The notes beneath the pieces were generated by a model that saw only the letters and a list, made by a program, of their open reading frames with translations, did not search any database and was not told where the DNA came from. Below are positions 10,139-14,105 of a DNA stretch of 60,759 nucleotides, piece by piece (the stretch's first letter is position 1; each line of letters begins with the position of its first letter). Location of the stretch: assembly GCA_025937235.1 (NCBI GenBank), contig JAICRU010000006.1, forward strand, positions 1 through 60,759, written 5' to 3'. Both the position numbers and the translations under genes were made by a program. The stretch comes from Acidimicrobiia bacterium (lineage in GTDB: Bacteria > Actinomycetota > Acidimicrobiia > Spongiisociales > ZC4RG35).

Positions 10139-11329
10139 GTGGTAGTCGATCAGGACCTGGTCCGCCACCTCTCCGAATCGTCGGTCTCGGTGGAGCTCCA
10201 GACCGAGGAGATGACCCTCAACATCGGCCCACAGCACCCTTCCACCCATGGAGTGCTGCGGCTTGTGGCCAGGGTCGACGGCGAGCGGGCCTTCGACGTC
10301 CAGCCCGTCATCGGCTACATGCACCGCGGCTACGAGAAGCTGTCCGAGGTGCGTACCTATCCCCAGATCACGACCCTGATCAACCGGATCGACTGGGTGG
10401 CCGGATACGCCAACGAGATCCCATTCGTGGTGGCGGCGGAGAAGCTGTTGGGGCTGGAGGTGCCGGAGCGGGCCCAATACATCAGGCTGATCCTCACTGA
10501 GATGGCCCGCATCTCCTCACATCTGATCTTCATGGCCTCCTACCCACTGGAGCTGGGAGCGGCCACGCCACTCTTCTTCGCATTGCGGGAGAGGGAACGG
10601 GTGCTCGACCTCCTCGAGGGGGTGACCGGTGGCCGGTTCCACCCCAACTTCAACCGGATCGGCGGGGTCAAACCGGCTTACGGCTCGGGCTCGAGCACAC
10701 GCAAGGTGATCCAGGATCTGCCCGCAGGGTTCCTCGCCGCGACGCGGGAAGCGATGGATCGAGTACTCGAGGCCGTCGAGGAGCTAGAGCTGCTGGTGGC
10801 CGACAACGAGATCATTCTCGCCCGGACCAAGGGGATAGGGGTGCTGCCCGCCGATGTGGCCGCCGCATACGGGGTCTCGGGGCCCAACCTGCGTGCATCG
10901 GGGGTCGCCTTCGACCTTCGCAAGGTGGAGGACTATCTGCCCTATCACCTGTTCGACTTCGAGATCCCCACCGGAGAGAACGGAGACTGTTGGGATCGTT
11001 GGCATGTCCGTCTGCTCGAGATCCGCCAGTCGGTCCGGATCGTCCAGCAAGCCATCGACGGGATCCCCTCCGGCCCGCTCCAGGCCAAGGTGCCCAAGAT
11101 CATCAAGGTCCCCCAGGGTGAGACATACGTACGCGCCGAGAACCCGAAGGGAGAGATGGGCTACTACCTGGTGTCCAACGGCAATCAGGGCCCCTACCGG
11201 CTCAAGATTCGCTCGGCCAGCTTCTCCAACATCTCCATCCTCCCCTGGATCCTGGAGGGGGTCCTGGTTCCCGACATCATCGCGATCCTGGGCAGCCTGG
11301 ACTTCGTGCTCGGAGACGTGGATCGATGA
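10139..11329 (+). CDS. nuoD: NADH-quinone oxidoreductase subunit D
   Basis: NIGPQHPSTHGVLRL, GYMHRGYEK, ENPKGE and GSLDFVLGDVDR. Confidence 0.96.
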   Translation: MVVDQDLVRHLSESSVSVELQTEEMTLNIGPQHPSTHGVLRLVARVDGERAFDVQPVIGYMHRGYEKLSEVRTYPQITTLINRIDWVAGYANEIPFVVAAEKLLGLEVPERAQYIRLILTEMARISSHLIFMASYPLELGAATPLFFALRERERVLDLLEGVTGGRFHPNFNRIGGVKPAYGSGSSTRKVIQDLPAGFLAATREAMDRVLEAVEELELLVADNEIILARTKGIGVLPADVAAAYGVSGPNLRASGVAFDLRKVEDYLPYHLFDFEIPTGENGDCWDRWHVRLLEIRQSVRIVQQAIDGIPSGPLQAKVPKIIKVPQGETYVRAENPKGEMGYYLVSNGNQGPYRLKIRSASFSNISILPWILEGVLVPDIIAILGSLDFVLGDVDR

Positions 11330-11460
11330 CATTCCGGCCGACTTCGAGTCTCGGCGACTCTCAGGCGGGCACCGGGCTGCCCGGGGGGCCTCCGCACCCT
11401 TCGGGTCGAACAGACGCCCGTCGGCCGGGGCTCCCGCTCCAAGATGAGGTCTGCCGGTGA
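11326..11460 (+). repeat. Structured intergenic repeat, copy 1 (nuoD/nuoH), containing a 44-aa bridging ORF
   Basis: CCGGCCGACTTCG...CGAACAGACGCCCGTCGGCCGGGGCT; starts at ATGA (nuoD stop) and ends at GTGA (nuoH start). Confidence 0.85.
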
Positions 11461-12464
11461 GCGCCTTTCTCTCCGACCTCTTCGCCAACTTCTGGGTGTC
11501 CCTGGCCGGGAAGCTGCTCCTTGTCGCCCTGATGATCCCTCTGGTCGGGATGGTGATCGGGTACGCCGAGATGAAGCTCTCGGCCAAGATGCAGGCCCGG
11601 GTGGGGCCCTACTTCGCCGGCGGGCGTTGGGGCTGGGCCCAACTCATCGCCGATGGGGTCAAGTTCTTCCAGAAGGAGGACCTGATCCCCGAGGAGGCTG
11701 ACCGCCCGGTCTTCAAGATCGCCCCGGTCCTGGTGCTCATCAGCACCGTTGCTCTCTTGGTCGTGATCCCATTCGGCCCCGGGATCATCTTCAGGGATCT
11801 CTCGGTCGGTGTCTTCTATGCACTGGCCATCTCCTCCCTCAGCACCGTGGGCATCCTCATGGCGGGCTGGTCATCGGGTAACAAGTACTCCCTGATGGGT
11901 GGTCTGCGGGCTGCCGGTCAGCTCATCGCCTACGAGTTGCCCCTGGTCCTCGCCGTGATCGGATCGGTGATGCTGGCCGGGACGATGAGCATGAGCGGCA
12001 TCGTGGAGGCCCAGATCGAGGCGGGCTACCCGTACCTGATCATCCAGTTCGTGGGTTTCGGGATCTTCATGGTCGCCGCCCTAGCCGAATTGAGCCGCAT
12101 TCCCTTCGACATGCCCATCGCCGAGTCGGAGTTGGTGATGGGCTATCTCACCGAGTACTCGGGCTTCCGCTTCCTCTTCTTCTTCCTCGCCGAGTTCGCC
12201 AACATGTTCACCCTCTCCGCGATCGCGGTGACCCTCTTCCTCGGCGGCTATTGGCTACCCGGCATACCCGAAGACGTCCTGGCCTATGCCGGGCCGGTGA
12301 TCGTCCTGGCCAAGACCTTCCTGCTGGTCTTCGCCATGATCTGGTTCCGCTGGACCTTCCCCCGCTTCCGGGAAGATCAACTGCAGAGCCTGGCCTGGAA
12401 ATGGCTGATCCCCCTTGCCCTGGCCAACATCATCATCACCGGAGCGTTCAAGGTGTACCTGTGA
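11457..12464 (+). CDS. nuoH: NADH-quinone oxidoreductase subunit H
   Basis: [36 protein letters not shown] and PRFREDQL. Confidence 0.96.
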
Positions 12465-12973
12465 CGGCGACTTCCAATCGGACCACCAACCGACGGGTTC
12501 TCCCCGGGATGGGGATGGCCAAGGGCCTGTGGGTGACCATCTACACCATGGTGCGCACCATCTTCCGCCCCGGGAAGTACCTGGCCACGGTCAACTACCC
12601 CCTGGTCAAGGAGACCCCGGTCCCGAGGGCGCGTGGGGTCATCGCCCTCGACCAAGAGGCCTGCACCGTATGCATGTTGTGCGCCCGGAACTGCCCCGAC
12701 TGGTGCATCTACATCGAAGGGCACAAAGAGGAGAAGCCGCCGGACAAGCCGGGCGGGAGGGTCAAGGTCCGCAACACCCTCGATCGATTCGACATCGACT
12801 ACGCCCTCTGCATGTACTGCGGCATCTGTGTCGAGGTGTGCCCGTTCGACGCCCTCTTCTGGTCCCCTGAGTACGAATACTCGGAAGTGAAGATGGGGGC
12901 CATGCTCCATGACATGGACCGGCTCCAGGACTGGTTGGAGACGGTCCCGCCCGATCCGGAGCTGGAGAAGTGA
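12461..12973 (+). CDS. nuoI: NADH-quinone oxidoreductase subunit I
   Basis: Two [4Fe-4S] motifs, [12 protein letters not shown] and [15 protein letters not shown] overlaps the nuoH stop. Confidence 0.95.
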
Positions 12974-13115
12974 GCTTCGTGGATTGCCGGCCGACTTCGT
13001 CCTTCGGCAACCTCCCGATTGCCGACTCTCCACGCCGTGCGGGCGCAGGCACACCTCAGGGCGAACAGATGCCGGTCGGCCGGGGCTGCCGCCGCGCGGA
13101 AGGATGTCGTCATGA
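12970..13115 (+). repeat. Structured intergenic repeat, copy 2 (nuoI/nuoJ)
   Basis: ATTGCCGGCCGACTTCG...CACACCTCAGGGCGAACAGATGCCGGTCGGCCGGGGCTGCCGC; bounded by GTGA (nuoI stop) and ATGA (nuoJ start). Confidence 0.85.
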
Positions 13116-13663
13116 GCGTCAGTGAGTGGCTTGGCTCACCGGTCAATTGGGTGTTCCTCGTGGTGGCGTTGGCGACCCTCTTCTCGTCCTGGCGTGTCGT
13201 GACGGCCAAGAACGTCGTCCACGCCGCACTGTATCTGGTTGCTGCCCTGGGTGGTACCGCAGTCCTGTTCCTGATGCTGTCCGCCGAGTTCGTCGCTTGG
13301 GTGGTGGTGCTGGTCTACATCGGCGCGGTGCTCGTCCTCTTCCTCTTCGGGATCATGATCACGAGAGCCCCGACCGGGAAGGACGTCGGCCTCGACACCC
13401 CTCACAAGACCTGGCCAGCTCTTCTCTCGGTCGCCACCTTCGTGCTGCTCTCCTGGGCCTCGATCCAGGCGTTCGGCACCACCCAGGTCGAGAGCGTCGG
13501 CGAGCCGACCTCGACCGAGGTGCTCGGCCTAGCCCTGCTGGGTAGGTTCGTGATCCCCTTCGAGGTGGTGTCCTTCGTCCTCCTCGCCGCGTTGATCGGC
13601 GGGGTCACCATCGCCCGGCGCGACCTGAGCCCGGTCGAGGAAGAGGAGAGGAGAGCGGTCTGA
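13112..13663 (+). CDS. nuoJ: NADH-quinone oxidoreductase subunit J
   Basis: NVVHAALYL, AEFVAW, VYIGAV and PFEVVS; start at ATG 13112. Confidence 0.93.
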   Translation: MSVSEWLGSPVNWVFLVVALATLFSSWRVVTAKNVVHAALYLVAALGGTAVLFLMLSAEFVAWVVVLVYIGAVLVLFLFGIMITRAPTGKDVGLDTPHKTWPALLSVATFVLLSWASIQAFGTTQVESVGEPTSTEVLGLALLGRFVIPFEVVSFVLLAALIGGVTIARRDLSPVEEEERRAV

Positions 13664-13968
13664 TGCTCCTCAACCAGTTCCTGATCCTGGCCGCGGCGAT
13701 GTTCTCCCTCGGGATCTATGGCCTGCTCGTCCGGCGCAACATCGTCCTCATCCTGCTCTCGGTGGAGCTGATGCTGGCTGCGGTGAACATCAATCTGATC
13801 GCATTCGAATCGGTCCTCCGGAGCCCCGAGGCCATAGGCCAGGTGTTCAGCATCTTCGTGATCACGGTGGCCGCCGCCGAGGTGGGGATCGGCCTGGCCA
13901 TCGTCCTGATGATCTTCCGCAACCGGAAATCGGCCAATGTCGATGAGCTCGACTTGATGAGGTGGTGA
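13663..13968 (+). CDS. nuoK: NADH-quinone oxidoreductase subunit K
   Basis: RRN...SVELML and VAAAEVGIGLA. Confidence 0.95.
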   Translation: MLLNQFLILAAAMFSLGIYGLLVRRNIVLILLSVELMLAAVNINLIAFESVLRSPEAIGQVFSIFVITVAAAEVGIGLAIVLMIFRNRKSANVDELDLMRW

Positions 13969-14105
13969 GCAGCTTGCATTGCCGGCTGACTTCGCCCCTG
14001 AGCACCCCTCGCCTGTGTGTCGGGGCCTCGGCTCGCGCCGCCACACCTCGAGGCGAACAGACGCCGGTCGGCCGGGGCTACCGCTCCGTCGGGGGTGAGT
14101 CGTGA
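13965..14105 (+). repeat. Structured intergenic repeat, copy 3 (nuoK/nuoL), containing a 46-aa bridging ORF
   Basis: ATTGCCGGCTGACTTCG...CACACCTCGAGGCGAACAGACGCCGGTCGGCCGGGGCTACCGC; GTGA at both ends. Confidence 0.85.

Follow-up and report, generated by a model that had tools for sequence, protein, structure and literature searches.

Short open reading frames across repeat insertions at complex I gene junctions of Acidimicrobiia are candidate relays of translational coupling

We analyzed a stretch of 60,759 nucleotides (nt), hereafter the window, from contig JAICRU010000006.1 of an Acidimicrobiia bacterium (GCA_025937235.1; all positions refer to the forward strand). It contains genes of respiratory complex I (nuo), and at three of their junctions, nuoD-nuoH (D/H), nuoI-nuoJ (I/J), and nuoK-nuoL (K/L), the neighboring genes are separated by a copy of a short repeat. 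Each of the three spacers is crossed by a short open reading frame (ORF) that opens in the upstream gene's stop codon and ends at the downstream gene's start codon or a few nucleotides beyond it. Across the nuo loci of Acidimicrobiia, inserts at the same junctions keep such a frame, and avoid stop codons in it, far more often than expected by chance. We infer translation of this frame and selection for coupling; the bridging frames are probably relay ORFs that selection maintains to preserve the translational coupling of the flanking genes.

The three ORFs had been described in an initial annotation of the window, and all were recovered with matching translations. Together with the genes that they connect and a Shine-Dalgarno (SD)-like motif, they are arranged as follows:

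10139 to 11329, plus strand: nuoD, 49 kDa subunit of complex I (PF00346, E 2.7e-83), with the stop codon TGA at 11327-11329 inside ATGA
11326 to 11460, plus strand: relay ORF 1, ATG start, 44 codons; ATGA overlap with the nuoD stop, GTGA overlap with the nuoH start
11446 to 11450, plus strand: SD-like motif GAGGT, 6 nt before the nuoH start
11457 to 12464, plus strand: nuoH (PF00146), GTG start at 11457
12461 to 12973, plus strand: nuoI, subunit of the 2x 4Fe-4S ferredoxin type (Pfam Fer4 families)
12970 to 13125, plus strand: relay ORF 2, GTG start, 51 codons; opens in the GTGA of the nuoI stop
12984 to 13115, plus strand: alternative ORF of the I/J spacer, TTG start in the 5′ end of the repeat, 43 codons; its TGA lies exactly in the ATGA of the nuoJ start
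13112 to 13663, plus strand: nuoJ (PF00499), ATG start at 13112
13663 to 13968, plus strand: nuoK (PF00420)
13965 to 14105, plus strand: relay ORF 3, GTG start, 46 codons; GTGA overlaps with the nuoK stop and the nuoL start
14102 to 16129, plus strand: nuoL (PF00361 and PF00662)

The spacers have lengths of 127 nt (D/H, 11330-11456), 138 nt (I/J, 12974-13111), and 133 nt (K/L, 13969-14101), and relay ORF 3 has an additional in-frame GTG at 13962. The other two junctions of the window retain native overlaps, GTGA at the uninvaded H/I junction (nuoH stop and nuoI start at 12461) and the 1-nt overlap TGATG at J/K (13661-13665). The three spacers were identified as copies of one repeat with nhmmer and with a covariance model (R1):

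11329 to 11443, plus strand: core of repeat copy 1 (nhmmer; R1 84 bits)
12982 to 13098, plus strand: core of repeat copy 2 (R1 101 bits)
13977 to 14090, plus strand: core of repeat copy 3 (R1 100 bits)

Comparison with orthologous loci indicates that the spacers are recent insertions of this repeat of about 130 nt into junctions that once overlapped or nearly touched. In many of 30 genomes of the genus, D/H and I/J are 4-nt overlaps, J/K is a 1-nt overlap, and K/L is a gap of 1–4 nt. The D/H spacer is absent from 14 relatives, in which nuoD and nuoH overlap by 4 nt; at I/J, the near relative G008 and 11 further relatives have an overlap of 4 nt, and K/L spans 1–4 nt in 13 relatives including G008. 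G008, with 92% DNA identity, carries the D/H insert while I/J and K/L are tight, and copies 2 and 3 are therefore young insertions. The same D/H spacer of 127 nt with a doubly overlapping ORF was present in the two nearest relatives, G008 and G024, with a diverged middle part. In the larger locus set described below, tight junctions were counted at D/H in 40 of 87 loci, at I/J in 50 of 75, at J/K in 50 of 77, at K/L in 33 of 69, and at H/I in 83 of 85. In other species the same junctions hold inserts of different sequence families, and in G015 the repeat lies reversed at the D/H junction. DNA contigs of an independent soil metagenome assembly (run X3) cross the D/H and I/J spacers, which are therefore not an assembly artefact, and the window stretch is represented in soil metagenomes from 10 studies. 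In the light of the empty sites, the start codon within the stop codon is largely a relic of the ancestral overlapping start.

The frame of the inserts was quantified in a set that combined the loci of the genus with 80 further loci found with NuoD. Duplicates were removed, as were all loci that came from an unpublished genome or were identical to one, which resulted in 90 loci with 393 junctions. Inserts of 25–260 nt were counted (n=118; D/H 43, H/I 1, I/J 24, J/K 20, K/L 30). The relative frame was defined as the downstream start minus the upstream stop, modulo 3; in relative frame 1, the upstream NTGA can open an ORF that terminates in the downstream NTGA. Relative frame 1 was found in 92 inserts, frame 0 in 22, and frame 2 in 4 (binomial test against 1/3, p=3.6e-23). 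When only distinct insert lengths were considered, 40 of 63 had the form 3n+1, where one third would be expected (p=9.5e-7). The ORF from the upstream NTGA ended exactly in the downstream NTGA in 55 of the 118 inserts, and in 97 it ended within −2 to +30 of the start. The 118 inserts form 58 sequence groups, and the preference was found for the 31 inserts of the window's repeat, 28 in sense and 3 in antisense orientation (25 in frame 1), as well as for all others (67 of 87). For the repeat, the overlap was exact at both ends in 15 of 31 inserts and nearly so in 23. A first pass restricted to the genus had yielded frame 1 in 31 of 36 inserts; as it included 9 inserts from unpublished genomes, it was not used as evidence.

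Could such ORFs arise without selection for the bridge, as by-products of stop-poor, GC-rich repeats and a left-over ancestral start codon, with selection acting only against N-terminal fusions? Several findings agree with this. Stop codons are absent from the conserved parts of the repeat in all frames of both strands. The upstream stop is ATGA, GTGA, or TTGA in 105 of 118 inserts, as at empty sites. All four frame-2 inserts, which would fuse a peptide onto the downstream protein, have that frame closed. However, avoidance of fusions alone predicts equal numbers for frames 0 and 1, whereas 22 and 92 were observed (p=2.3e-11). Composition, estimated with dinucleotide shuffles, predicts 61.8 inserts with a stop-free bridging frame, but 109 were found (z=9.7); the other two frames were stop-free in 55 and 52 inserts, as predicted (60.4 and 61.8). 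Many inserts are hairpins built from 7-nt units rich in TAG and TAA, and the bridging frame is nevertheless open in them. In addition, the insert lengths differ by multiples of 3, both within and between families. An origin as by-products is thus very unlikely.

Several results nevertheless weigh against a relay function. Dinucleotide shuffles of the three window spacers left the bridging frame open with probabilities of 0.83, 0.73, and 0.54, values that also fit the by-product explanation; considered without other genomes, the three open frames are unremarkable, as composition predicts. Relay ORF 2 is in relative frame 0 and ends at the 14th base of nuoJ, 11 nt beyond the nuoJ start. In the locus set, 26 of 118 inserts are outside relative frame 1 and the bridging frame is closed in 9. 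The gene starts used for the frame counts are predictions, based on homology and the nearest in-frame start codon. Inserts from related genomes are not fully independent, and a grouping into 114 clusters probably overcounts their independence. At the atpD-atpC junction described below, relative frame 1 occurs in just 2 of 7 inserts. An SD-like motif (at least 4 nt) precedes the downstream start in 102 of the 118 inserts, and therefore, fresh initiation may contribute and could carry much of the expression. Seven contigs of 150–260 nt from the RNA runs X17, X19, and X20 lie within nuo genes or begin at spacer edges, and none crosses a spacer; RNA contigs break at repeats, and therefore, these are uninformative about transcription or processing of the spacers. 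Finally, copies of the repeat outside of tight junctions showed no clear preference for the bridging frame, which would also be expected of by-products. The initial annotation had proposed that frame preservation be looked for over the genome-wide copies; there was no clear excess outside of tight junctions, in what is a weak test. The bias is missing from these copies, and therefore, the signal belongs to the invaded coupling junctions and not to the repeat itself.

The last two points rest on the flanking genes of 133 distinct copies in published genomes. Co-directional genes surround 26 copies in sense and 22 in antisense orientation, 23 copies are convergent and 5 divergent, and for the remaining 57 a gene call was lacking on at least one side. 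The frames were open as follows:

Co-directional, sense: bridging frame open in 19 of 26, the other frames in 13 and 18
Co-directional, antisense: bridging frame open in 9 of 21, the other frames in 10 and 3
Convergent, read from the left gene (sense): bridging frame open in 14 of 21, the other frames in 10 and 11
Convergent, read from the right gene (antisense): bridging frame open in 8 of 22, the other frames in 11 and 8

Relative frame 1 was found in 27 of 47 co-directional copies, a modest excess in a count that includes the nuo copies and their orthologues. Ordinary spacers of this genome were taken from a crude baseline gene call of 2200 ORFs. The relative frames of 366 co-directional spacers of 25–200 nt were unbiased (122/137/107), and each frame was open in about 44% of 191 ordinary spacers of 61–200 nt. 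The doubly overlapping architecture was present in 17 of 391 spacers of 25–260 nt, and 4 of these 17 contain the repeat.

The relay reading could operate as follows. The old overlapping start codon, or one nearby, would now open a short ORF, and a ribosome that ends translation of nuoD, nuoI, or nuoK would immediately restart on it. While translating, it would melt the structure of the repeat, and it would terminate on the next start codon, which is preceded by the SD-like motif from the 3′ end of the repeat. The ribosome would then be handed on, or the site would be exposed for a new one. The peptide would be irrelevant. Inserts that break the chain would be removed by selection, and therefore, only relay-competent inserts would be seen in tightly coupled operons. 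The initial annotation had argued along these lines, and its view that the open frame rather than the peptide is kept for coupling agrees with the counts for relative frame 1, open bridging frames, and ends near the downstream start (92, 109 against 61.8 expected, and 97 of 118); its further suggestion that subunit ratios are tuned found no support.

A benefit of spacer translation might also lie elsewhere. It might be selected because it counteracts polarity, by preventing Rho from binding a C-rich stretch that would otherwise be untranslated, and the trapping of the SD motif and the start codon in hairpins, while the downstream gene is begun by fresh ribosomes. The SD-like motifs ahead of most downstream starts suit this explanation, as does the strong structure of the inserts, with a fold z-score below −2 in 42 of 104 and a median of −1.5. 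In the minimum-energy fold of the D/H spacer, the SD-like GAGGUC pairs with the conserved GACUUC of the repeat (11334-11346 with 11446-11457), which in this model would mask the ribosome-binding site of nuoH until relay ORF 1 is translated; the pairing is absent from the folds of the other two nuo copies. RNA unfolding and relief of Rho polarity are established effects of translating upstream ORFs according to the review PMC12548453, and 42 of the 97 near-coupled ORFs end off the exact start. Anti-polarity or unfolding would, however, require an open frame but no set position of the stop codon, and yet frame 1 by far exceeds frame 0, and exact 4-nt overlaps occur in 55 of 118 inserts. Taken as the sole benefit, this explanation is unlikely, although less so than an origin as by-products. 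The two mechanisms are mutually compatible, and on these data hand-over is inseparable from unfolding and anti-polarity. The preference for a relay stop codon within the downstream NTGA favors hand-over as at least a part of the benefit.

The location of ORFs of 44–51 codons within an operon for a membrane complex could also suggest functional small proteins, e.g., accessory peptides of complex I. Their sequences argue otherwise. The peptides differ between the copies, which read the same repeat in different frames: as the initial annotation had pointed out and the translations confirmed, copy 1 reads the conserved 3′ motif as ..GRTDARRPGLP.., while copies 2 and 3 read it as ..GEQ[MT]PVGRG... 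Between close relatives, the orthologous D/H copy is constant in length but diverged in its middle part. At shared junctions, insert families without relationship to each other encode peptides that are likewise unrelated, and the reversed repeat also forms relay ORFs. A search of the relay peptides against Pfam matched no family. It is extremely improbable that these ORFs are genes for small proteins.

Relay ORFs are not confined to the nuo operon. Iterated nhmmer and covariance model searches of the genome (3.08 Mb, 171 contigs, 96.7% complete) revealed 11 copies of the repeat, and a relay ORF was found at 7 of them, the 3 nuo junctions and 4 others:

Second nuoL/nuoM-like pair (locus L001, contig C120, 117-3672), repeat in sense: relay ORF of 48–49 codons, ending 4 nt past the downstream ATG
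atpD-atpC, repeat in antisense: relay ORF present
Two ABC ATPase genes, repeat in antisense: relay ORF whose two ends overlap the genes exactly
Downstream of a SnoaL-like gene: relay ORF with a TAGTG overlap

Of the other copies, three are ambiguous, and the fourth copy of the window lacks a relay ORF:

29167 to 29280, minus strand: repeat (R1 94.6 bits) between guaA (27622-29157) and a gene for a CheA-like kinase (29308-31284)

This copy is antisense to both flanking genes, which were identified with Pfam, and an ORF search there did not reveal a relay ORF. At locus L005 (contig C137; repeat on the minus strand, 2008-2119), the repeat and a long ORF downstream of it share one frame, which begins at an ATG 7 nt behind a thiolase stop codon; the repeat may be part of an N-terminal extension, or the real start may lie 89 nt beyond the repeat. 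A partial match on contig C55 lies within an ORF of 564 codons and was taken as chance.

The atpD-atpC junction was compared between this genome and single representatives of 37 other genera in the family; after omission of the locus of an unpublished genome and of one locus without atpC, 28 loci could be analyzed. The junction was tight in 17 of them. All 7 inserts of at least 24 nt contain an ORF that reaches from −1 to +5 of the stop codon to −5 to +11 of the start codon.

The nature of the repeat itself was also characterized. Its core has 107–135 nt, mostly 114–117. Over 112 full-length copies, the ends read TTGATTGCCGGCC on the 5′ side and GCTnCCGCCnCGnGGCnAGGT, which is SD-like, on the 3′ side; the 3′ consensus of the family is ..GGCnAGGT. 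A 9-bp inverted repeat (CCGGCCGAC / GTCGGCCGG) lies near the ends but not at the termini, and it encloses a conserved bulge (ACAGACGCC) and an inner helix; the middle is variable in sequence and constant in length. The single-sequence fold z-scores are mostly between −0.3 and −1.5, which is weak because of the high GC content, and therefore, the case for a structure was built on covariation. In the inner helix, 6 of 10 pairs show changes on both sides, and 90% of the cells are paired, compared with 33–55% when the partner is slid. The covariation score was reached by none of 500 shuffles, a comparison that is based on 11 related copies. The alignment thus characterizes the repeat as a structured element whose base pairs are kept by compensatory changes. 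Rfam 15 gave no match on the spacers in a search of the whole window at gathering scores, nor at E values up to 5 over 11300-14120.

Of the 30 other genomes of the genus, 21 gave a match to the model of the element, and the number of matches ranged from 0 to at least 61. It occurs in both orientations relative to transcription and prefers the 3′ ends of genes. Some relatives have tandem copies: head-to-tail arrays, formed by the repeat or by its conserved 3′ motif of 30 nt and repeating roughly every 135–137 nt, were observed at the following positions:

Genome G004, contig C19: 307560-308228
Genome G087, contig C7: 161131-161709
Genome G087, contig C3: 2831-3402
Genome G087, contig C6: 334011-334312

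There was no clear target-site duplication; over 112 copies, the longest word shared by the flanks had a mean of 5.09 nt, compared with 4.53 nt in shuffled pairings. A Y1/RAYT transposase (PF01797) was not found in this genome or in G004, G019, G015, G022, and G010, in a search whose controls matched in 6 of 14 genomes. The distribution and the covariation characterize the element as a genus-wide structured mobile repeat. A literature search on intergenic repetitive elements of Acidimicrobiia, which did not extend to supplements, found no publication on this repeat family in the library that it covered.

The other insert families have features of their own. The hairpin arms of the 7-nt-unit inserts consist of 3–5 tandem units with a genome-specific unit sequence (e.g., L043, at all four junctions, L061, L164, L182, L215, and L219), and these inserts are often preceded by a shared GCTCGCT.CGCTC-like leader and terminated by an SD-like motif. 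Relative frame 1 is also shared by four longer nuo-junction inserts of 340–625 nt (L187, L188, and L221 at D/H, L212 at K/L), which may be stacked elements or small inserted genes. Regarding the operon, nuoH lies directly 3′ of nuoD; nuoE, nuoF, and nuoG do not lie between them, and the Pfam check covered nuoD, H, I, J, K, and L. The operon therefore looks like the 11-subunit type of complex I. A consensus scan of 11200-14200 for promoters and terminators found none. Contigs of two RNA runs begin at 11461 and 14093, the 3′ edges of the D/H and K/L spacers; most simply, these are assembly breaks at the repeat, or they may reflect RNA processing at the repeat.

The closest known counterparts are mycobacterial interspersed repetitive units (MIRUs; Supply et al. 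1997, as described in the review PMC12548453), short mobile intergenic repeats at stop/start junctions of operons. According to the same review, the MIRU ORF is coupled to the flanking gene at a spacing of −4 nt, which is read as a low-impact insertion, and the relay principle has thereby already been proposed for MIRUs (PMC12548453). As far as the description in the review goes, the likeness is one of architecture, an intergenic mobile repeat in operons with an ORF coupled to the flanks, and tandem copies exist here too, in relatives. The present repeat also lies between co-directional genes of operons (the 3 nuo junctions, the second nuoL/M-like pair, atpD-atpC, and the pair of ABC ATPase genes), and yet 23 of 133 copies are convergent. 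The overlap with the flanking stop and start codons at −4 was found at both ends of relay ORFs 1 and 3, while relay ORF 2 has it only at the 5′ end and the alternative ORF of this spacer at the 3′ end. In contrast to MIRUs, the host belongs to the Acidimicrobiia, and the element is longer (about 130 nt) and has a covarying hairpin. MIRUs have a single orientation relative to the transcription of the flanking genes. The present repeat does not share this feature, as the co-directional copies are 26 in sense and 22 in antisense, others are convergent, and the D/H copy of G015 is reversed. Furthermore, the relay rule also covers many unrelated inserts, and it therefore looks like a host-level filter and not like a property of a single element.

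REP sequences and BIMEs, REPINs, and miniature inverted-repeat transposable elements (MITEs; Correia, ERIC, RPE) are small, structured, non-coding, multi-copy intergenic repeats with variable copy numbers. The present element resembles them in its range from 0 to at least 61 copies between related genomes and in its preference for gene 3′ ends. It differs from REP and REPIN in that the Y1/RAYT transposase was not found in this genome and five high-copy relatives. It may also differ from MITEs, as its inverted repeat lies inside the element around a conserved bulge and there was no clear target-site duplication.

Regarding the mechanism of coupling, −4 (NTGA) and −1 (TGATG) are the most common spacings, and two models are discussed, RNA unfolding and ribosome re-initiation or scanning (PMC12548453). 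The review attributes polarity to the loading of Rho on untranslated RNA, and it describes ribosome hand-over and its weight for multi-subunit complexes as debated (PMC12548453). The ancestral nuo junctions have exactly these motifs, and the relay ORF re-creates the motif at one or both ends. In contrast to plain NTGA coupling, two coupling steps would operate here in series, via a non-coding-like mini-ORF of 40–60 codons that crosses a hairpin. A related principle is used in synthetic bicistronic designs, where ribosomes reach the downstream gene by way of a short leader ORF (PMC12548453). There as here, a disposable short ORF ends on the start codon of the target gene and removes the effect of local RNA structure, but the present case is natural, made by insertion of a mobile element, and also coupled at the 5′ side to the upstream gene.

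The relay pattern spans this repeat in either orientation, the 7-nt-unit hairpins, and G-rich elements. It is tempting, though at present somewhat less probable than its opposite, to extend the relay reading in two directions at once: coupling in respiratory-complex operons of Acidimicrobiia might be a general filter that only relay-forming inserts survive, and at least one repeat family might be a portable cassette for the colonization of junctions, with a 5′ TTGA, a body that is stop-free on both strands, and an SD-like 3′ end. If the filter is general, the invaded junctions would represent a genome-scale natural mutagenesis of the rules of hand-over, such as stop-start spacings and the passage of hairpins.

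Taken together, what is new here is the repeat family, its action in both orientations, and the scale on which nature has run the experiment, with 118 inserts spread over four junctions of a single operon. More than 100 different spacers have entered the same four junctions, and the survivors are almost always mini-ORFs chained to both neighbors. For annotation, this means that relay mini-ORFs should not be called genes for small proteins, and the spacers are natural sequences for reporter tests of coupling rules. For the biology of this uncultured soil lineage, the inserts provide indirect but quantitative evidence that coupling is under selection in the operons for complex I and ATP synthase, that relay ORFs can cross strong hairpins, and that small mobile repeats can enter overlapping genes without breaking operons.

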